Source: Scenedesmus sp. PABB004 (Eukaryota). From it: a stretch of 64,000 bases of DNA. The position numbers and the translations under genes are program-made. The stretch is taken from NCBI GenBank assembly GCA_014905635.1, contig JABVCE010000002.1, forward strand, positions 1,116,001-1,180,000, given 5' to 3'. Each line of letters begins with the position of its first letter. Position 1 is the stretch's first letter. Below are positions 42,821-64,000 of the stretch, one piece after another. The notes beneath the pieces are model-generated. The model was not told where the DNA came from. It saw only the letters and a list, made by a program, of their open reading frames with translations, and did not search any database.

Positions 42821-45800
42821 ATGGCGGCAGCCGCGCCGGACTGCTGTCAGGTCATAGACGGCGAGGGCAACTTCCAGGAGGCCGCGCTGGAGGCGTTCGT
42901 GGCGGCCAACGGCGTGGTGAACGCGCGCACCAACTACCAGGTCGTGGCGATCATGGGGCCCCAGAGCAGCGGCAAGAGCACGCTCATGAACCACCTGGTG
43001 CGGCGGCGCGCGCCCAGGGCCGGCGGCGGCGCCCTGCGGCGCGGGCGCGGGCGCGTCCGGCGGCGCGCCGCCGCCGCTGCTGCTGTCGCCGCAACCGCCG
43101 CCCGGCCGCCGCAGTTTGGGACGGCGTTCGCGGAGATGGACGCGATGACGGGGCGGCAGCAGACGACCAAGGGCGTGTGGCTCGCGCGCAGCCCGAAGTT
43201 GCCCGACCCCACGACGCTCATCCTGGACCTGGAGGGCAGCGACGGCCGCGAGCGCGGCGAGGACGACACCAACTTTGAGCGCCAGAGCGCGCTCTTCGCG
43301 CTCGCGGTCGCCGACGTGCTGCTCATCAACGTGTGGTGCCACGACATCGGCCGCGAGCAGGGCAGCGGCAAGCCGCTCATGAAGACGATCTTCCAGGTCG
43401 GCGGCGCGGGCGATGGAGATGGAGCCGCGCGGCGCACGGGCTGCGCGGCGGGGGCGCCCGCGCGCCGCCGCGGGCAGCGCCGCGCGGCGGCGGCCGACGC
43501 GCGCCGCGCGCCCCGCGCCGCCCGCCGCGCGCGCGCAGGTCAACCTGAAGCTCTTTGCGCCCGAGCCCAACCGCAAGCGCACGGTGCTGCTGTTTGTGAT
43601 CCGCGACAAGTCCAAGACGCCGCTGGCGAAGCTCGCGGAGATCCTGGGCGAGGACGTGCACAAGATGTGGGACAGCATCAGCAAGCCGCCGCAGTACGCC
43701 GACTCGCGCATCGACGACTTCTTCGAGGTGCGGCCGCGGCGCCAGCAGCGCCGGCGGCGCCGGCACCGCGCGCAGCGGCGGTGCCAGCTGGCACGGCGGC
43801 GGGCAGGCGGGCGCGACACGGGCGCGCGACACGGCTGCGCGGCGCGGCAGGTGCAATACACGGCGCTGCCGCACTACGAGGACAAGTACGAGGACTTCAT
43901 CGCCGACAGCGTGGTGCTGCGCCGCCGCTTCACGCCCGACGGTGCGCAGCGCCGCGCGGCCGCGCGGCAGGGCCCGGCGGCTGAGGCCGGCGGCCCGCGG
44001 CGGCGGCGGGGGCGGGGCAGCAGCGGGCGGGCGGCCGCCGACGGCGCGCGCCCGCCGCGCAGGCGACGACTCGCTCGTGCGCGCCGAGGAGAAGCTGCCC
44101 GCGGACGCGCTCGTGCTGAGCACGCGCAACATCTGGAGCATCATCCGCAGCCAGAAGGACCTCAACCTGCCCGCGCACAAGGTGCGGGCGCCTGGGGCAG
44201 CGGCAGCGGGGCGCCGGGAGGGGCGGCGGCGCTCGGCGGCAGCCTCGTCAACCGCGCGCCGCCCGCGCCGCGCCGCGCCGCCAGGTGATGGTTGCGAGCA
44301 TTCGGTGCAACGAGATCAAGCAGGACCAGCTGCGCGCGTTTGCCGGCGACCAGGCGTGGCAGGGCGTGGAGGCCGGCGCGGGCGCCGGCCTCATCCGCGA
44401 CTTTGGCGCGACCGTGGCGGGCCTGCTCGACAGCTGCATCAACGGGTGCGGCCAGCCGCGCGCCGCCGCGCAGCGCCAGGCAGCCAGCCGCGGCGCAGCG
44501 CAGCCTGGGCAGCGCCGCGCGCGCCGCGCCGACCACGCCGCGCCGCGCTGCCGCACCGCCGCACGCCGCCGCGGCAGGTACGAGGTGGAGGCGATGTACT
44601 TTGACGCCAGCGTGCGCGGCGAGCACGGCGCGGACCTGCGCGACAAGCTCGTCGCCGCGGTCGCGCCCGCGTTCGGCGCGCAGCTGCGCCTGCTCGCGGC
44701 GGCGCAGCTGGCGGGCTTTGACAAGGACTTCAAGCTCGCGCTGCTCTCCAAGGCCGACGGCGACGAGCAGTCGCGCGGCTTCAGCGCCGCGGCGGCCGCA
44801 TGCACGGCCGAGGCGCTGGCGGGCTTCGACGCGCGCGTCGGCGAGCTGCTGGTGCCCGGCACCGGCCTCACGGGTGCGCGGCGCGCCGGCCGCGCGGCAG
44901 CCTGCCGGCAGCGCCAGAGGCACGCCCCGGCCGCAGCGCACACCGCGCTCGTCACGCGCCGCCCACCCACCCTGCCCGCTGCTGTGCGCAGCCGACGAGG
45001 CGCGCGCGAGCCTGGCGGCGTCCATCGCGGAGCACGTGGACAAGGCCAAGCACGCGGCGCTCAAGGAGGCGCTGGCGGCGCGCGAGCTCACGCTCACGCG
45101 CCTCGTGGCGGTGCCGGCGGTGGAGCTGCTGGCCAGCTTCCCGCCCAACCTCTGGCAGCAGCTGCACGCCGTGCGCAAGCAGGTGCGCGCCGACGGGGCA
45201 AGGGCCGCGGGCCCGCGCGCGGCGCAGGCGCGCCGCCGGCGGCGCGGCCGCGCTGCAGCCCCGCCCGTCCGCCCGCGCGGCGCCGCCGCCGTCAGGCCAT
45301 CGCGACGACGAGCACGGAGCTCGCGGCGGCGCTGTCGGGCATGGCGCTGACCGCCGAGGAGCGCGGCGCGCTGGACGCCAAGCTCGCCGCCGCGGCGGAG
45401 AAGAAGACGGCCGACCTGCTGCAGGTCCGCGGCCGCGGCGGCGGCACGGCGCGGCCGGCGGGCCGGGGCGGCCACGGCACGCTGCGTGCGCGCGGCCGCT
45501 CAGCGCCGCCGCGGCCGCCGCCGCGCAGGAGGCGGCGCTGACGCGCGTGACCAAGATGCGCGACGTCTTCAACCACGCGTTCAGCCTGGACGAGCACGGC
45601 ACGCCGCGCACGTGGCGGCCCAAGGACAACATCCCCGCGCTCGCGCGCGCGGCGCGGCGCGAGGCGGCGCGCGTGCTCGCGCTGCTGGTGCGCGCGGCCG
45701 CCGCCGCGCCGCGCCGACGCGCCGCGCCCGCGGCGCGCGGCCCGCCGCCGCCGCTGACGTTGCGCCGCCCGCCACGCGGCGCAGGCGGTCGTGCGGGGGC

Positions 45801-56663: not shown

Positions 56664-57969
56664 ATGCAGCTCTCCGCGCAGCGCAGCGCGGCCGCGCAGC
56701 GGCCGGCGGCCGCCTCGCGTGCCGCGGCGGCGCTGCCGCGCTGCAGCCTGCGCGCCGCGCCCTTCACCGCGCCTCGCCAGCAGTCGGGCCTCGCGTCGTC
56801 CTGCAGCAGCGCGCTCGCGCCCGCGCGCCGCGGCCTGCAGGTGCGGGCGGCAGCAGCAACGAGTGGCGCGCGGGCGTGCTCCGCGCCCCGCGGGCGGCGC
56901 GCCCAGCGGGCCAGCCAATTGCGCGGCCGAGTCCCCGCGCTGACCAGGGCAGCGCGGCACGAGCAGGCGGCCGCCGCGCCGGGGGCGGCGAGCAGCGGCG
57001 GCCGGGGCCGCGGCACCAGCGGCGCCCGCCCGGCCGGGCGGGCCGGGCGGGGCCCGGCGGCGGGCAGCCCGCACGCCGCCGCCGCCGCCCACCGCCCTCC
57101 GCCGCCGCGCCGCCGCAGGCGCCCGCGGCGCGCGCGGGCCGCGCCGGCGTGCGGTCGCTGGCGGTGCGGTCGGAGATCAGCTACGTGATGGTCAAGCCCG
57201 ACGGCGTGCAGCGCGGCCTCGTGGGCGACATCATCTCCCGCTTCGAGCGCAAGGGCTTCAAGCTCGTCGGCCTGAAGCTCTACCAGACGCCCAAGGAGGT
57301 CGCGGAGGAGCACTACAAGGAGCTCAGCGCAAAGCCCTTCTACCCCAAGCTCGTCGAGTACATCGTGTCCGGCCCCGTCGTCGCGATGGTGCGGCGGAGC
57401 AGCCGCGCGCGCGCGCGCGTGCCGGGCAGCGGCGGCGGCGGCGCCGGCGGCGCGGCGGCGGCGGCACGGCTCACGCGCCGCGGCGCGCGCGCGCGCGCGC
57501 AGGTGTGGGAGGGCGCGGGCGTCGTCGCGTCGGCGCGCAAGCTCATCGGCGCGACCAACCCGCTCGCCGCCGAGCCCGGCACCATCCGCGGCGACTTTGC
57601 GATCGAGGTGGGCGCCGGCGCGGCGGGGCGGGGCGCCGGCGCGGCGGGGCGCCAGCCGGCTGGGGCGGGCGGCGGGCCCCGCGGCTGGTCGGGCGCAGCC
57701 CAGCAGCGCGCGCGCTCAGCCCGCCGCGCCGCCTGCCGCCGCCGCAGGTCGGGCGCAACATCGTGCACGGCAGCGACAGCGTCGAGAACGGCGAGCGCGA
57801 GACGGGTGCGCTGGCTGCCGGCGGCCCGCGGCGCGCGCCGAGCGCTCGGCTCCTGCCAGCGCGCGGCCCACGCCCACGCGCCCGCTGCCCGCCCCTGCCC
57901 GCAGCGCTGTGGTTCCCCGAGGGCACCGCGAGCTGGGACCAGACCATGACGCCCTGGCTGAAGGAGTGA
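56664..57969 (+). CDS. NDPK2: Nucleoside diphosphate kinase, plastid-targeted (NDPK2-like)
   Basis: Transit peptide, [32 protein letters not shown] and [10 protein letters not shown]. Confidence 0.95.
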
Positions 57970-57977
57970 GGCTCGGC

Positions 57978-58143
57978 GGCGCACCGGCGAGTCGTGACGC
58001 TGCGCCTGGAGCAGGGCAGCTGAGCGGGCGGCGCGCCGGGGCGGTCTGCAATACCTGAGCCCGCGACCACTCGCGCCCACGCTGTCCCCGCGACGCACAG
58101 CCCGGCGTACTTCCCGACGCGCCAGGCGCCCAGCCCCACGCAG
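57978..58143 (+). repeat. Direct repeat copy A: displaced copy of the HISN8 3' end and 3' UTR
   Basis: Aligns to 63008-63174 with 5 substitutions and 1 indel. Confidence 0.95.
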
Positions 58144-58862
58144 GATTGCGTCGGCCTGCGAGGCAGCGGCGCGCGCCGCCACCCGCCGCCTGCAACCGTC
58201 TGCCGGACCCCGCGCGCGCCCGAGCCGGCTCCGGCAGCGCTGGCGCGACGTGCGGGGCCGCTCGCGCGTCGTCGTCGATTCAGAGTACCGCCCCCCCGGG
58301 CGGGCGAGCACGCGCGTCGGGGCTGCTCGGCGGTTCAGGGCGGCACGCCGCGACCGTCTGCACAATCCGGTGCGCGGCGCTTGGGCACCAGATCGTGCAC
58401 GGTCGGAGGCACGCAGCGGTCACCCGCGCCCGGCGAGAGCCTCCCGCGATGCACAGCCGGTCGATCGGGCGACTGGGGCGCGCGCGCTGCTGGCAGCCCA
58501 GCCGGCGCGCGCCGCGATGGGCAGCCTGTGAGGTGCGTGTGTGGTGCGTGCGTCGCGGCCGCTCGGATCGCGCACTCCGCCGCCGGGCGCGTTCCGGAAG
58601 ATTCATGCCGCCGCCCCGCCCCGCCCCGCGCCGCGCCGCGCCGCCCCGCCGTCAGGCGCCGCGCCGCCCCGCCGTCAGGCGCCACGGCCTCGGTTGAGGG
58701 CGCGCTGGGCGCCATGGAGCCGGAGCCGGAGCCGCCGCCGCCGCCGATCGGCGCGCCGGCAGCAGCACCGGCGGCGGCACGAGCGGCGCGCGCAGCGGCG
58801 GCGGCCCCCCGGGCCCCCCGCCCGCGCGCGGCATCGACCCCGCCGAGTGCGCGGCGCAGCCC

Positions 58863-60521
58863 GTGGAGGGCGCCGACTGGGAGGCGCTGTGCCGCCACGC
58901 GCAGGCCCGCGGCGAGGCCGCCCGCGCGGCGGCGATGGCGGCGGTGCTCTCGGCGCCCGCCGCCAGCGTCGGCACGTCCGCCAGCAGCGCCGCGGCCAGC
59001 AGCGATGAGGAGGAGGGCGGACCGGCGGCGAAGCGCGCGCGCGGCGCCGACGCGGCGCAGCGCCGCAGCCGCGGCCGCGGCCGTGCGCGCTCGCGCGGCA
59101 GCGCCAAGGCCGCGACGCGCGGCGGCCGCACGCCCTCGCGCGGCGGCGGCCGCGCGCGCTCGCGCGGCGGCGCGGCGGCGGCGCCGCGCGGCCGCCGCAA
59201 GCGCTCGCGCGGCGCCGACGAGGCGTCGGGGCGTGCCTCGCCCGCGCGCGGCGCAGCGGCGGCCGAGGCGGGTGACAAGGCAGGGCGGCAGCAGCAGGCG
59301 CTGCCGCGCCACTTCGCCAAGCGCGCCAAGACACGGACCGAGCAGGCCAAAAAGGCAGCGGCCGGCTCTGGCATGCGTGAGTGTGCCCGCCGCGCGGCGC
59401 GCTGCCGGGCCGCCGGGCCGCTCTCTCGGCACCCTGCGCCACCGCCGCCCCGCGCCCTGCCCGCGCCCCCCTCACCTGTCCTCGCTCGCCTGCCCGCCCG
59501 CCTCAGGCGTGCGCGTCTGCGCGCTGCGCGGCGCCGTGCGCAAGCCAGAGGTGGTCCCCAACCTCGAGGCGCGGCCGCGGCCGTGCACGCGGGCGTGCGC
59601 GTCGTCGGAATCGACCCGGGCCGGGCCCGCATGGTTTGTGCCGCGACTTGGCGGCAGGGCCCGGGCTGCACGCGCGTCGGGCACCGCCGCATCGCGCAGC
59701 GGCGCTGCCCCAACGCGCCGCGCCACCTCGGCGACCACGGCCGCCGCTACGAGGCGGAGCGCATCATTAGAATAAAGACCGCCGCGCACCGCGACGCGCG
59801 CGGGATTGAGCGGCACCGGCTTTGGCAGGAGGGGCGGCCGGGGCGGTACGACCGCCGCCCGCCCGGCGGCGGCGACTGCGTGCGTGCCTGCCTGAACCGC
59901 GTGCCTGCATACTCGGGCACGAGCGTCGCCGCCGCCGCCGCGTGGCGCAACGGCCGGGTGCATCATGTGCTCAACAATGCATTCGCATATAGCTTGCTTG
60001 CGTGCCGTGCAGAGTGTGCGTGGCGGCTGCGGAAGCACGGGCTGAAGCAGCGCGCGCTGCATGCAGCCATTCAGTTGACCGCATACGGCCGGGTCTTTGT
60101 GCGCGGGCGCGTCCGGCCGCACGCGCGCCTGCCCGCCGACCTGCCCGCGGTGGTGCTGGGCATCGGGGACGCCAGCCTGGGCATGGGGGGCTGCATCTCG
60201 GGGCCGGGGCCGCCGCGGCAGGCGCTGCTGGACACCTACTACGCGCGCCGGCGCGTCGCCGCGGTGCTCATGGACGAGCACCGTACCAGCATCACCTGCT
60301 CGGTCTGCGGGGCGCGCATGGAGAAGCTGCGGGGCATTTACGGTCTGGTGCAGTGCCCCGGGTGCACGGTCGTCGCGCCGCGCGACGACAACGCGGCGCG
60401 CAACATCTGCGCGCTGACCCTGCACGAGTTGCTGCGCGGCGGCCGCGGCACGGCGGGCGGCGCGCGCCTCGCCGGCGCGTTCCGGCAGGCGGCCGCCGCC
60501 GCGGTGCTCCCCCCGGCGTGA
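58863..60521 (+). CDS. Fanzor (eukaryotic TnpB-like RNA-guided RuvC endonuclease), likely an internally deleted copy
   Basis: RuvC-I VRVVGIDPG (D at 59613), VVLGIGDA, DEHRTSITCSVCG (E at 60276), zinc finger C..C/CPGC and RuvC-III RDDNAARNI (D at 60384). Confidence 0.88.
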   Translation: MEGADWEALCRHAQARGEAARAAAMAAVLSAPAASVGTSASSAAASSDEEEGGPAAKRARGADAAQRRSRGRGRARSRGSAKAATRGGRTPSRGGGRARSRGGAAAAPRGRRKRSRGADEASGRASPARGAAAAEAGDKAGRQQQALPRHFAKRAKTRTEQAKKAAAGSGMRECARRAARCRAAGPLSRHPAPPPPRALPAPPSPVLARLPARLRRARLRAARRRAQARGGPQPRGAAAAVHAGVRVVGIDPGRARMVCAATWRQGPGCTRVGHRRIAQRRCPNAPRHLGDHGRRYEAERIIRIKTAAHRDARGIERHRLWQEGRPGRYDRRPPGGGDCVRACLNRVPAYSGTSVAAAAAWRNGRVHHVLNNAFAYSLLACRAECAWRLRKHGLKQRALHAAIQLTAYGRVFVRGRVRPHARLPADLPAVVLGIGDASLGMGGCISGPGPPRQALLDTYYARRRVAAVLMDEHRTSITCSVCGARMEKLRGIYGLVQCPGCTVVAPRDDNAARNICALTLHELLRGGRGTAGGARLAGAFRQAAAAAVLPPA

Positions 60522-60730
60522 GCGGTGTGTGCCTGCGCTGCGCTCTCCGTCCTGGGCAGGACGTTAAAAGGCCTCTTGCTGTTGTGTGTTGCCAGGTTAG
60601 GTCAGGCGTGTGCGCGTGCGTTTCTCGCATGGTCACCCGTTCCGGGTGGGGGGACCCCCTCGCGGGGGCACCGACCTGCGGGCCGGTCCCAAACCGTCAT
60701 GCCTCGCGCCGCAGTGGCCTGTTTCAGGCG
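60522..60730 (+). ncRNA. Candidate Fanzor omegaRNA scaffold (boundaries approximate)
   Basis: Directly downstream of the Fanzor stop, with several clean stems: 60548-60563, 60634-60648, 60651-60656/60685-60690, 60627-60633/60696-60702 and 60717-60729. Confidence 0.5.
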
Positions 60731-61052
60731 GCCGGCGATCAGAGGATGCCCATGGTCGGTGTTGGCGGCGGCGGCGCGCGCGCGCGGCGGCGGCGCGCGG
60801 CGCCGCGCACGCGCGCCGCGCGCCCGCGGCGTCGGGGCGCCCCCCGGGGCGCCCCGGCAGCCCCCATCCCCCCAGCCGCCGGTGTTGAGACCACCGGCCG
60901 GCGCTCCCACGGCGGTTGCGAGCCGGCGGGGAGCACGCCCTCTGGCGTGCCGCAGGTCACCGCCTCCCATCGGCCCAGTCCTCCGCCGCCCTAGAGCCGT
61001 CCCACCCGCGCCCCCGGCCACGGCCAGCAGCGCGCAGCCCGCGCCGACCGAG

Positions 61053-63053
61053 ATGCGCACCGCTGCCCTGGGCCGCGCGAGCAGCAGCCGCGTCGCGCGC
61101 GCGAGGAGCGGTGCCGGGGTGGTGCCGCCGTTTGGCCAGTTCGGCCGCGCCATGCTGCCGACGCCGCACCGCGGGCGCAGCGGGCGCCTGCGCGCGAGCG
61201 GCGTCGCGAGCGCGGAGCGGCTGCTGAAGACCGTGTCCAGCGAGGCGCTGAGCGATGAGGAGGTCAAGAAGCTGCTGCAGCGGCCGCGCATCGACTTCAC
61301 CTCCATCCTGAGCACGGTGCGTGGTGCAGCAGCACGCCGCCGGCTGCCGCGCCAAATGCGGCGCCCCGCCCCGCCGCCAGCCCGCAGCGCGGCGCACGAC
61401 GGCAGCATGACGCCGTGCCGGGGCCATGCGGCCGCTGAGGGCAGCAAATACGCGGCCCGCGCCCGCGCGGGCGCCGCGGCCGGCGCCGCTGCTGCGCCCG
61501 ACCCGGCGCTGCCGCCGCGGCTGCCGCGCAGGTGGGGCCCATCGTGGAGCAGGTGCGTGCCGAGGGCGACGCCGCGGTGCGCGCGCTCACGGAGCGCTTC
61601 GACAAGGTCAAGCTCGACGACGTCTGCGTGGCGACCGAGGTGCGTGCCGGCGCCGGCGCGGGCGCAGCGCGAGCGCGGCAGGCCGCCCTCACGACGCCGC
61701 CGCCTCGCCGCCGGCGCAGGACCTGCCGTGGCCGGTGCTGCCGGAGGAGGTGTCGCGCGCGTTTGACGTCGCGTACGCCAACATCCGGGCCTTCCACGAG
61801 GCGCAGCGCGGCGCCGACCTCAGCGTCGCGACGATGCCGGGCGTGACGTGCCGCCGCGTGACGCGGCCGATCAACGCGGTCGGGCTCTACGTCCCCGGCG
61901 GCACCGCGGTGCTGCCGAGCAGCGCGCTCATGCTCGCCGTGCCGGCGCAGATCGCGGGCTGCGGCACCGTCGTGCTCGCGACGCCGCCGCGCCCCGACGG
62001 CAGCATCACGCCCGAGGTGCTCTACTGCGCCAAGAAGGCGGGCGTGACGCACATCCTCAAGGCCGGCGGCGCGCAGGCGGTCGCGGCGATGGCGTGGGGC
62101 ACGGGCAGCGTGCCCAAGGTCGCCAAGATCTTTGGCCCCGGCAACCAGTACGTGACCGCCGCCAAGATGGCGCTGACCAACAGCGAGGCCATGATCGCCA
62201 TCGACATGCCCGCGGGGCCCAGCGAGGTGCTGGTCATCGCCGGTGAGCCGCCGCGGGCGCGGGGCGCGGGGCGCGGCGGCGCTTGCAGCGGCGCGCGCGG
62301 CGCACCCCGGCCGCCGCCGGCGCCGGCGCCCGCCGCCCGCCGCCCGCATCTGCCCACACCCGGCCGCTCGTGCGCGCCGCAGACGAGGGCGCCAACCCCG
62401 CGCACGTCGCGGCCGACCTGCTGTCCCAGGCGGAGCACGGCCCCGACAGCCAGGTCGTGCTGCTCGCGCTGCCCGGCGTGGACCTCGACGCGGTGCAGGC
62501 GGCGGTGCAGAAGCAGTGCGACGAGCTGCCGCGCAACGAGACCGCGCGCAAGGCGCTGTCGCACAGCTGCGTCGTGCAGGTGCGCGACCGCGAGGAGGCG
62601 TGCCGCATCAGCAACGCGTACGCGCCGGAGCACCTCATCGTCAACGTGGACGACCCCGAGCCCTGGCTGCCCCTGCTCGACAACGCGGGCAGCATCTTCA
62701 TGGGCCGGTGCGCGGCGGCCGGCGGCGCGCGCGCCCGCGCGCCGGCCGGCCGGTGGGCCCCTCGGGAGCCGCCCGCGCTCAGCGCGCGCCGCCGCCGGCA
62801 CCGCCGCCGCAGGTGGACGCCGGAGAGCGTGGGCGACTACGCGAGCGGCACCAACCACGTGCTGCCGACGTACGGCTACGCGCGCATGTACAGCGGCGTG
62901 AGCCTCGACAGCTTCACCAAGAAGATGACGGTGCAGAGCCTCACCTGGGAGGGCCTGCAGGTGCTGGGCCCCCACGTGGCCAAGATGGCGGAGGTGGAGG
63001 GCCTCGAGGCGCACCGGCGAGCCGTGACGCTGCGCCTGGAGCAGGGCAGCTGA
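61053..63053 (+). CDS. HISN8: Histidinol dehydrogenase, plastid-targeted
   Basis: [69 protein letters not shown] and [16 protein letters not shown]. Confidence 0.97.
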
Positions 63054-63174
63054 GCGGGCGGCGCGCCGGGGCGGTCTGCAATACCTGAGCCCGCGACCAC
63101 TCGCGCCCACGCTGTCCCCCGCGACGCACAGCCTGGCGTACTTACCGACGCGCCAGGCACCCAGCCCCGCGCAG
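63008..63174 (+). repeat. Direct repeat copy B (native HISN8 3' end and UTR)
   Basis: Near-identical to 57978-58143. Confidence 0.95.
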
Positions 63175-63233
63175 CAGCGGCAGGGGCGCACGCGGGAAGC
63201 AGCAGCGCCGCTCGCAGCCGCACGCGCCGCTGC

Positions 63234-64000
63234 ATGCCGCCCCTCGCCCGTGCGCGCACCCCAGAACTGATCAATAGCACCTTCGCGAGTTCGCGCGCGC
63301 GCCAGCGTCCGCCAGCGCGCTCGCAGCGGCCCGCGCCGGCGGCAGCAGCGGCAGCAGCACTCGCCGCGTGGCGGCCGGCAGTGTCGTCCCGCGGAAGCAG
63401 CAGCGGCAGCAGCAGCAGGAGCAGCGGCGGCAGCAGCCGCAGCCCGCAGCTGCCGGCGAGGCAGGCGGCGGGCGGCAGCGGCCGACGCCGCGTGCGGGCG
63501 ATGGTGGCGGCGGCGTCGGCGGCGGGCGCGCCCGGCCTGGGCGCGCCGCTGCCGCACGTCGGGGACGCCGAGTCGGGCTGCATCTACCTTGACTACAACG
63601 CCACGACCCCTATCTACCCGGAGGTCGCGGCGGCGATGCGCCCGTTCAGCTACGAGCTCTTTGGCAACCCCTCGAGCGGGCACGCGCACGGGCGGCGCAC
63701 GCGCGCCGCGGTCGACGCCGCGCGGCGCGCGGTCGCGGGCCTGATCGGCGCGCCGTCGCCGGGCGAGGTTGTGTTCACGTCCGGCGGCACGGAGGCGGAC
63801 AACTGGGCGATCTGGGGCGCCGTGATGGCGCGCCGCGCCGCGGTCGCGCCGGCGCTGCCCCACGTGGTCACGAGCGCAATCGAGCACCCCGCCGTGACCG
63901 CGTGCCTCGCCGCGCTCGCCGACGCGGGGCTGTGCACGCACGCGCGCGTGCCCGTGTCGTCGGAGGGGCTCGTGTCGCCCGCCGACGTCGTGGCCGCGCT
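63234..64000 (+). CDS. Cysteine desulfurase / selenocysteine lyase family PLP enzyme (5' part, truncated by the window end)
   Basis: IYLDYNATTP, FGNPSSGH, VVFTSGGTEADN and VVTSAIEHPAV, in frame with an ATG at 63234 through a transit-peptide-like region. Confidence 0.9.
   Translation, partial: MPPLARARTPELINSTFASSRARQRPPARSQRPAPAAAAAAALAAWRPAVSSRGSSSGSSSRSSGGSSRSPQLPARQAAGGSGRRRVRAMVAAASAAGAPGLGAPLPHVGDAESGCIYLDYNATTPIYPEVAAAMRPFSYELFGNPSSGHAHGRRTRAAVDAARRAVAGLIGAPSPGEVVFTSGGTEADNWAIWGAVMARRAAVAPALPHVVTSAIEHPAVTACLAALADAGLCTHARVPVSSEGLVSPADVVAA

Follow-up and report, generated by a model that had tools for sequence, protein, structure and literature searches.

Fanzor1 proteins are eukaryotic omegaRNA-guided RuvC nucleases of the TnpB family that are carried by transposons, and Fanzors are of interest both for genome editing and for transposon persistence. 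We analyzed a 64,000-nucleotide (nt) stretch of the genome of the green alga Scenedesmus sp. PABB004 (contig JABVCE010000002.1, positions 1,116,001 to 1,180,000, forward strand; hereafter the window), in which an open reading frame (ORF) with Fanzor motifs lies between genes for NDPK and HISN8. The most similar protein of solved structure is SpuFz1 of Spizellomyces punctatus (PDB 8GKH, 9CEU-9CEZ). According to Saito 2023, its residues D383, E541 and D606 are ligands of two Mg2+ ions, the duplex carrying the target-adjacent motif (TAM) is read by two domains, REC and WED, and the heteroduplex lies in a channel formed by WED, REC and RuvC. The same source describes 42 Fanzor loci in S. punctatus, with full-length (19) or partial genes.

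As described by Jiang 2023, Fanzors and TnpB2 have a rearranged RuvC, with an inert Gly or Pro at the site of the RuvC-II Glu and an alternative Glu about 45 residues further on. Bao and Jurka 2013 place the Fanzor1-conserved G and E 36 residues apart and give a superfamily motif, D-X(125,275)-[TS]-[TS]-X-X-[C4 zinc finger]-X(5,50)-RD, in the C-terminal half. Table 1 of that paper includes Fanzor1 genes of Volvox, Chlamydomonas and Chlorella, and the Chlamydomonas reinhardtii CRe-1/2/3 copies are described there as frequently 5'-truncated and internally deleted, with the 3' end intact. Published descriptions of Chlamydomonas also mention an intron-bearing Fanzor1c in six Helitron2 copies and a CrFNuc locus at which small RNAs map to the 3' untranslated region (3'UTR). 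In Auxenochlorella, the most abundant repeat is described as a Fanzor-encoding element.

Compared with these systems, the window ORF is probably a 5'-truncated or internally deleted Fanzor1 copy, that is, a transposon remnant and not a working RNA-guided nuclease. Over its C-terminal ~300 residues it has the rearranged RuvC of Fanzor1 type, together with a CCCC zinc ribbon. Pfam assigns residues 461-515 to PF07282 (OrfB_Zn_ribbon/Cas12f1-like TNB; 37.9 bits versus a cutoff of 26.3, E-value 1.9e–9), and phmmer against PDB returned the mimivirus TnpB-like protein L79 as the top match (E-value 0.005). With residues 230-552 as a query, HMMER found 27 proteins at E-value ≤ 1e–3 among 1.84 billion cluster representatives. 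The best of these relatives (P0001, 627 residues) is 36% identical, with query positions 16-276 aligned to its residues 274-559 (E-value 1.1e–16), and a look-up of the relatives' clusters returned unnamed or 'hypothetical' proteins from metagenome sources in 10 of 10 cases. A profile built from the window protein and 26 of the HMMER hits matched SpuFz1 best in PDB (8gkh, E-value 1.8e–23), followed by mimivirus ApmFz2 (1.5e–16), Guillardia GtFz1 (1.3e–13), Parasitella PpFz1 (4.7e–13) and, after the Fanzors, TnpB, Cas12f and TranC proteins. The sequence-only reading, made earlier from the letters of the window, had named the motifs GIDPG (with D251 at 59613), GIGD, DEHRTS, CSVC..CPGC and RDDNAARNI, and all of them were found (Table 1). 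In the profile columns, D251, E472 and D508 fall on SpuFz1 D383, E541 and D606 (counted from the numbering of the maltose-binding protein fusion, with N385 as a control), and this alignment to the SpuFz1 metal ligands suggests that the three acidic residues would meet at one metal site. G435 is invariant in 11 of 11 aligned sequences and aligns to a Gly of SpuFz1, and E472, which follows 37 residues later, is invariant in 27 of 27. The Fanzor1 rearrangement is thus present in both its parts, the Gly at the RuvC-II Glu site and the conserved downstream Glu. The superfamily motif can also be followed from end to end: D251, 223 residues, T475 S476 I T, C479-x2-C482-x15-C498-x2-C501, 5 residues, R507 D508. 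With all three catalytic positions filled, the earlier proposal of a rearranged RuvC with a relocated Glu and a zinc finger agrees with the Fanzor1 match, as does its expectation that the C-terminal 300 residues would match RuvC/TnpB profiles.

The predicted fold points in the same direction. An AlphaFold2 model of residues 230-552 built on a 27-row alignment (predicted local distance difference test, pLDDT, 73.4; predicted TM-score, pTM, 0.73) gave Foldseek matches to AsCas12f (8.9e–7) and SpuFz1 (1.7e–6, TMq 0.48), and also to ApmFz2, GtFz1 and ISDra2 TnpB. VIA-align placed SpuFz1 first (Z 13.1, root-mean-square deviation 6.3, 234 residues, model 7-316 on chain 368-633), so that the nuclease lobe matches a solved Fanzor in the comparison that the sequence-only reading had proposed; AsCas12f (Z 12.2-12.8) and ISDra2 TnpB (8h1j, Z 11.8 on residues 182-378) follow. 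Since these scores lie within ~1 Z unit of each other, fold alone cannot separate Fanzor1 from Cas12f or TnpB, with which the window protein shares the common RuvC-TNB fold and PF07282, and identity to SpuFz1 in the structural alignment is only 18%. The window protein resembles SpuFz1 in the Gly on the RuvC-II strand, the DE.[KR]TS Glu, the RD and the CCCC ribbon, whereas canonical TnpB carries its Glu on the RuvC-II strand, where the window protein has GIGD. NCBIfam TnpB and Cas12f models aligned to the same stretch only weakly, far below their cutoffs (for TnpB, NF038281, 20.3 versus 425, and NF040570, 18.9 versus 100). Hence, with these cutoffs missed and GIGD replacing the Glu strand motif, the protein does not fall within prokaryotic IS200/IS605 TnpB, and its gene also differs in its setting, which is eukaryotic, with intron-bearing genes on both sides. 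In the ESM Atlas, its features indicate PF07282 clusters of eukaryotes and giant viruses (0.94-0.96). A word-based protein search with residues 230-552 gave 0 of 8000 candidates at E-value ≤ 1e–3, and the same search with P0001 returned P0001 alone. The 17 loci from a metagenome locus scan are all distant, with matches of 33-53% identity confined to the zinc-ribbon stretch, and include no close paralogue; a viral-contig scan gave 1 distant locus.

Upstream of GIDPG the picture is different. Residues 1-245 comprise 29% Ala, 19% Arg, 12% Gly and 8% Pro (68% together), and Pfam assigns them to no family. The alignment with four long relatives (P0001, P0002, P0004, P0012) begins at VRVVGIDPG and reaches the C-terminal tail. 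Before VRVVGIDPG these relatives have up to ~270 ordinary residues with a shared F.HH..TDG-type motif, and neither the residues nor the motif has a counterpart in the window ORF in this alignment. tblastn matches of all 27 relatives to the window are confined to 59607-60434. A hidden Markov model (HMM) of the four relatives' N-termini found nothing in the six frames of 57000-60000 (best E-value 0.38), and the plus-strand frames of this interval contain no [ST]DG motif. A phmmer search of PDB with relatives P0004 and P0008 was uninformative on N-termini. In a full-length model, residues 1-245 form a few isolated helices and no strands, mostly at pLDDT ~30, which is weak evidence because that part was modeled with no homologues to guide it. 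The structural matches cover neither residues 1-367 of SpuFz1 nor residues 1-181 of TnpB; in SpuFz1, the ~367 residues before RuvC-I are described as a disordered segment, WED and an enlarged REC, and we did not find them here. Thus, no WED/REC N-terminal of RuvC-I was recognized by sequence, profile, Pfam or predicted fold. Without WED/REC the protein would have no hold on the TAM duplex or the guide-target heteroduplex of the kind that solved Fanzor1 has, and by itself it should therefore not act as an RNA-guided endonuclease. Of the earlier assignment to a green-algal Fanzor1-type locus, the C-terminal RuvC and zinc ribbon stand; a complete Fanzor does not, as nothing before GIDPG resembles WED/REC.

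Most probably, an element carrying Fanzor1 inserted into the 3.1-kb NDPK-HISN8 spacer. Its Fanzor1 copy would have been 5'-truncated on arrival, or its middle would have been lost later by internal deletion, with a breakpoint possibly near 59572-59588. RuvC-I/II/III with the relocated Glu, the CCCC ribbon, the conserved C-terminal tail and ~250 nt of 3' flank would have been retained and the WED/REC recognition lobe lost, while the low-complexity sequence upstream would stay open largely since stops are rare at 84-88% GC. Compared by description, the Helitron2-borne CRe-1/2/3 copies of Chlamydomonas (CrFNuc, Fanzor1c) resemble the window locus in that the 3' half and flank are kept. They differ in that no Helitron hairpins, target-site duplications or other copies were identified in the window.

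Base composition limits what the length of the ORF can tell. The window as a whole is 77.7% GC (locally 73-87%), and its six frames contain 205 stop-free stretches of at least 200 codons and 33 of at least 500 codons, including long stretches that run antisense to real genes, such as 62022-63941 (minus strand), which faces HISN8. Because 33 stretches reach at least 500 codons, ORF length is no argument here, and ORF calls in this GC-rich genome need homology or codon-phase support. The probability of being open by chance, estimated from shuffles, is ~0.21 for the 245-codon N-terminal part (1026 of 5000) and ~0.014 for the RuvC half. The frame is open upstream to 58701 and has in-frame ATGs at 58935, 59373 and 59631. 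GC content at third codon positions (GC3) in the ORF frame is 0.93-1.0 over ~58750-59230 and 0.85-0.90 to ~59400. Across 59350-59590 it drops to 0.65-0.80 and a different phase has the highest value, and from 59590 to the stop it is back at 0.88-1.0; the RuvC half as a whole shows a coding-like pattern (GC1/2/3 = 0.73/0.58/0.89). A candidate intron (Table 1) resembles the three introns of NDPK (~99-139 nt, GTG[C/G]G...CAG), and its excision puts the upstream part out of frame with the GIDPG/RuvC part. The acceptors that would keep the frame, at 59544, 59550 and 59568, are AAG or GAG and look weak, and the good CAG acceptors at 59506 and 59548 shift the frame. The single long ORF may hence exist only in unspliced sequence.

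Related variants of the locus occur elsewhere. In a word search of sequencing runs, 10 metagenome runs, mostly freshwater, each hold 0.05-0.17 of the sampled words, and no RNA run holding locus words is among the runs listed. In all four metagenome runs that we compared (X1, X3, X7 and X9, from four different studies), contigs are 93-97% alike over parts of 59387-60776 (Table 1). Most contig pieces from the flanking genes or from the spacer upstream (58270-58602) resemble the window more closely than this, showing 0-2 differences. Element-like divergence starts between 58603 and 59386, extends at least to 60776 and must end before 61053, the first in-frame ATG of the HISN8 reading frame. In contigs of X3 and X7, 60382-60483 (102 nt) is replaced by 9 nt (net –93 nt) with loss of RDDNAARNI, and in the 693-nt contig of X7 a further replacement of 60045-60144 (100 nt) by 29 nt (net –71 nt) breaks the frame, so the variants include broken or catalytically dead copies. 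The X7 contig on 59387-59571 ceases to match there with 63 nt remaining, and the contigs on the RuvC half begin at 59589-59640 in the pieces listed. A deletion breakpoint just upstream of GIDPG, within 59571-59589, is possible from these contig ends. In X3 the Fanzor contigs have a depth of 29-31 versus 3-5 for flanking pieces, which hints at multiple copies, although depth is not copy number. Together, these comparisons suggest a small family whose copies are diverging and decaying in structure; the copies may be paralogues or one locus in related strains.

Table 1. Features of the Fanzor1 locus (window coordinates)
Feature	Position	Strand	Remarks
Fanzor ORF	58863..60521	+	552 codons, GTG start under table 11
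N-terminal low-complexity part	58863..59597	+	245 codons; K/R-rich and RG-rich runs
Imperfect tandem repeat	59070..59207	+	4 overlapping 69-nt copies, offset 21-24 nt; encodes RGRGRARSRG-type stretch
Candidate intron (inferred)	59377..59506	+	GTGAGT, pyrimidine-rich tract, CAG at 59504-59506; 130 nt
RuvC-TNB homology region (nuclease lobe)	59598..60434	+	ORF residues ~246-545
D251 of GIDPG (RuvC-I)	59613..59615	+	profile column aligned to SpuFz1 D383
GIGD, residues 433-436	60159..60170	+	on the strand holding the RuvC-II Glu in canonical TnpB
E472 of DEHRTS, relocated Glu	60276..60278	+	column aligned to SpuFz1 E541
CCCC zinc ribbon, C479/C482 (CSVC) and C498/C501 (CPGC)	60297..60365	+	inside PF07282 match
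RDDNAARNI (RuvC-III)	60381..60407	+	R507/D508 at 60381-60386; D508 (60384-60386) column aligned to SpuFz1 D606
Non-coding tail	60522..60776	+	after stop; lower GC, T-rich; accompanies RuvC half in metagenome variants
HISN8 3'-end copy	57978-58143	+	167-nt direct repeat, 96.4% identical to 63008-63174
X1 contigs	59589-59790, 59831-60415, 60510-60776		matched pieces
X3 contigs	59876-60091, 60484-60667		matched pieces
X7 contigs	59387-59571, 59640-59795, 59797-59969; 59945-60737		one 693-nt contig over 59945-60737 in three pieces
X9 contigs	59599-59749, 59735-59876, 60000-60258		matched pieces

Several observations weigh against a remnant. The RuvC half is free of stops and frameshifts, and the ORF retains all catalytic and zinc residues. 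Substitutions in the metagenome variants were counted from 40 rows listed (112 more lie beyond them), of which 25 rows, at 24 positions, are in the ORF. Among the rows listed, 13 of 24 ORF changes are at third codon positions (binomial test, P-value 0.028) and 11 of 20 changed codons are synonymous, versus ~27% for random single changes. Small insertions listed within the ORF number three and have lengths of 6, 9 and 9 nt. This suggests, as far as such counts go, that the RuvC half was under some constraint until recently. GC3 over 58750-59230 in the ORF frame resembles that of host exons, and some of the N-terminal stretch may be genuine coding sequence, such as a disordered region with a nuclear localization signal (NLS). 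Missing N-terminal similarity is weak evidence when taken alone, because Fanzor N-terminal halves are described as highly variable (Bao and Jurka 2013); the fold prediction for residues 1-245 is weak as well, and that the relatives' N-termini represent WED/REC is our assumption. No terminal repeats or hairpins in 57800-61600 convincingly frame the ORF, and no target-site duplication was found; the repeats of this interval (21 direct families and 120 inverted pairs, 71-81% match) are all GC-rich low complexity. Neither tblastn nor a profile of the nuclease half gave a second copy in the window (next best E-value 0.097).

A rival reading is a complete, active Fanzor1 whose N-terminus is too divergent or too disordered to be recognized and whose guide RNA lies in the 3' flank, which we consider unlikely. 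The intact D/E/D triad and CCCC ribbon, the open RuvC half and the excess of synonymous changes agree with activity. So does the length of the N-terminal part, 245 residues before RuvC-I versus ~181 in ISDra2 TnpB, and Fanzor N-termini are described as variable and often opening with a disordered region. Moreover, the non-coding tail travels with the gene in the metagenome variants and, by analogy with the CrFNuc locus, is a candidate 3'UTR or guide-RNA region. However, the predicted RNA fold of 60480-60790 is indistinguishable from shuffles (z –1.43, 7 of 100 shuffles as good), and Rfam returned 0 matches for 57900-61200 at E-value ≤ 1. Among the variants the tail diverges no less than the ORF does, and five of the six indels listed there are of 1 nt, the sixth being a 3-nt insertion. 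The biased composition and tandem repeats of residues 1-245, their lack of a family, of strands and of confident structure, and the absence of the relatives' N-terminal motif from all upstream frames also argue against a hidden recognition lobe, since in SpuFz1 the contacts to TAM and heteroduplex are described as coming from WED and REC. Even full-length CrFNuc-1 of Chlamydomonas is described as showing no detectable cleavage. The 30-nt inverted repeats and the defined omegaRNA described for SpuFz1 were not found here. As to the omegaRNA guide and the transposon carriage that the sequence-only reading gives for Fanzors, the searches made here showed no omegaRNA, transposon ends, second copy or expression at this locus.

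Constraint on the RuvC half could also be due to exaptation, that is, to a RuvC-only host gene in which an Arg/Gly-rich, NLS-like disordered region and the Fanzor nuclease lobe are selected for another function. The excess of synonymous change with in-frame indels in the RuvC half agrees with such a gene, as do the host-like GC3 over 58750-59230 in the same frame and the presence of a single copy in the window, fixed between two same-strand housekeeping genes. But variants without the RuvC-III motif and a frame-breaking form are what decaying repeats typically show, unlike a host gene that is conserved. The RuvC half also has a lower GC3 (0.89) than neighboring host exons (0.97-1.0), the coding signal is interrupted at 59350-59590, and splicing of the best-looking intron would shift the frame. 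We therefore regard exaptation as improbable. A more specific form of selection, a compact Fanzor derivative in which an Arg/Gly-rich, NLS-like disordered region replaces WED/REC and is fused to the intact RuvC-zinc-ribbon lobe, seems to us quite improbable, although the excess of synonymous changes, the in-frame indels and the host-like GC3 of part of the N-terminal stretch would be compatible with it; if true, a GC-rich green alga would have kept it as a host-exapted nuclease or as a partner acting in trans with full-length copies. It is very unlikely that the gene is complete in the organism, with WED/REC exons collapsed or mis-assembled in 58700-59590 (84-88% GC) or joined by unseen splicing: extreme GC and tandem repeats do stand exactly where the missing half is expected, one metagenome contig departs from the window at 59571 and green-algal Fanzor genes are described as carrying introns, but the window has no Ns, the six-frame searches of 57000-60000 show no trace of the relatives' N-termini, and the spacer up to the NDPK stop has no room for hidden exons beyond the stretch searched.

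A truncated or internally deleted Fanzor1 copy hence remains the reading that we prefer, and its surroundings show signs of rearrangement. Both neighbors named earlier were found by Pfam, on the same plus strand as the ORF: NDPK upstream (PF00334, E-value 1.2e–26, 57173-57391; stop codon 57967-57969) and the histidinol dehydrogenase HISN8 downstream (PF00815, E-values 3.7e–69 and 5.7e–66, 61696-63050), whose start codon would be the ATG at 61053. The repeat unit at 63008-63174 consists of the HISN8 3'UTR preceded by the final 46 nt of the coding sequence. Its upstream copy begins 9 nt past the NDPK stop, so that a HISN8 gene end serves as the 3' flank of NDPK, and homology stops abruptly at 58143/63174. 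This copy marks a rearrangement at the left side of the NDPK-HISN8 spacer, and it may have arisen as filler DNA, through repair, or as a flank transduced in connection with the insertion. A simple insertion into a duplicate was rejected: sequence from 63175 should then resume after the Fanzor, and only low-complexity matches were found. The spacer upstream of the ORF also contains an exact 23-nt tandem duplication of GCGCCGCGCCGCCCCGCCGTCAG (two copies and a partial third, 58633-58685), and an 87% copy of this unit is present at 61358-61380. The first NDPK intron (57368-57463) matches 45220-45318 on the opposite strand (77% match, 101 nt, E-value 3.7e–11), which is probably a GC-rich simple repeat.

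The sequence-only reading had also considered an uncharacterized family. This is true in so far as the nearest proteins are unnamed and metagenomic, with at most 36% identity; green-algal Fanzor1, including truncated copies, has already been published. The locus is a very divergent algal Fanzor1 lineage with a pattern of truncated copies already known in Chlamydomonas, in a genome whose GC content is far above what the relatives' proteins suggest for their own genomes. It also calls for caution, since in DNA as GC-rich as this even an ORF that is long and has its catalytic triad intact can be half a gene. Because its recognition lobe is absent, the copy is not a candidate editor, and it is of value for probing the same genome for full-length paralogues. 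Overall, the locus adds a divergent algal Fanzor1 lineage (identity of at most 36%; 27 hits in 1.84 billion cluster representatives) from an extremely GC-rich genome.

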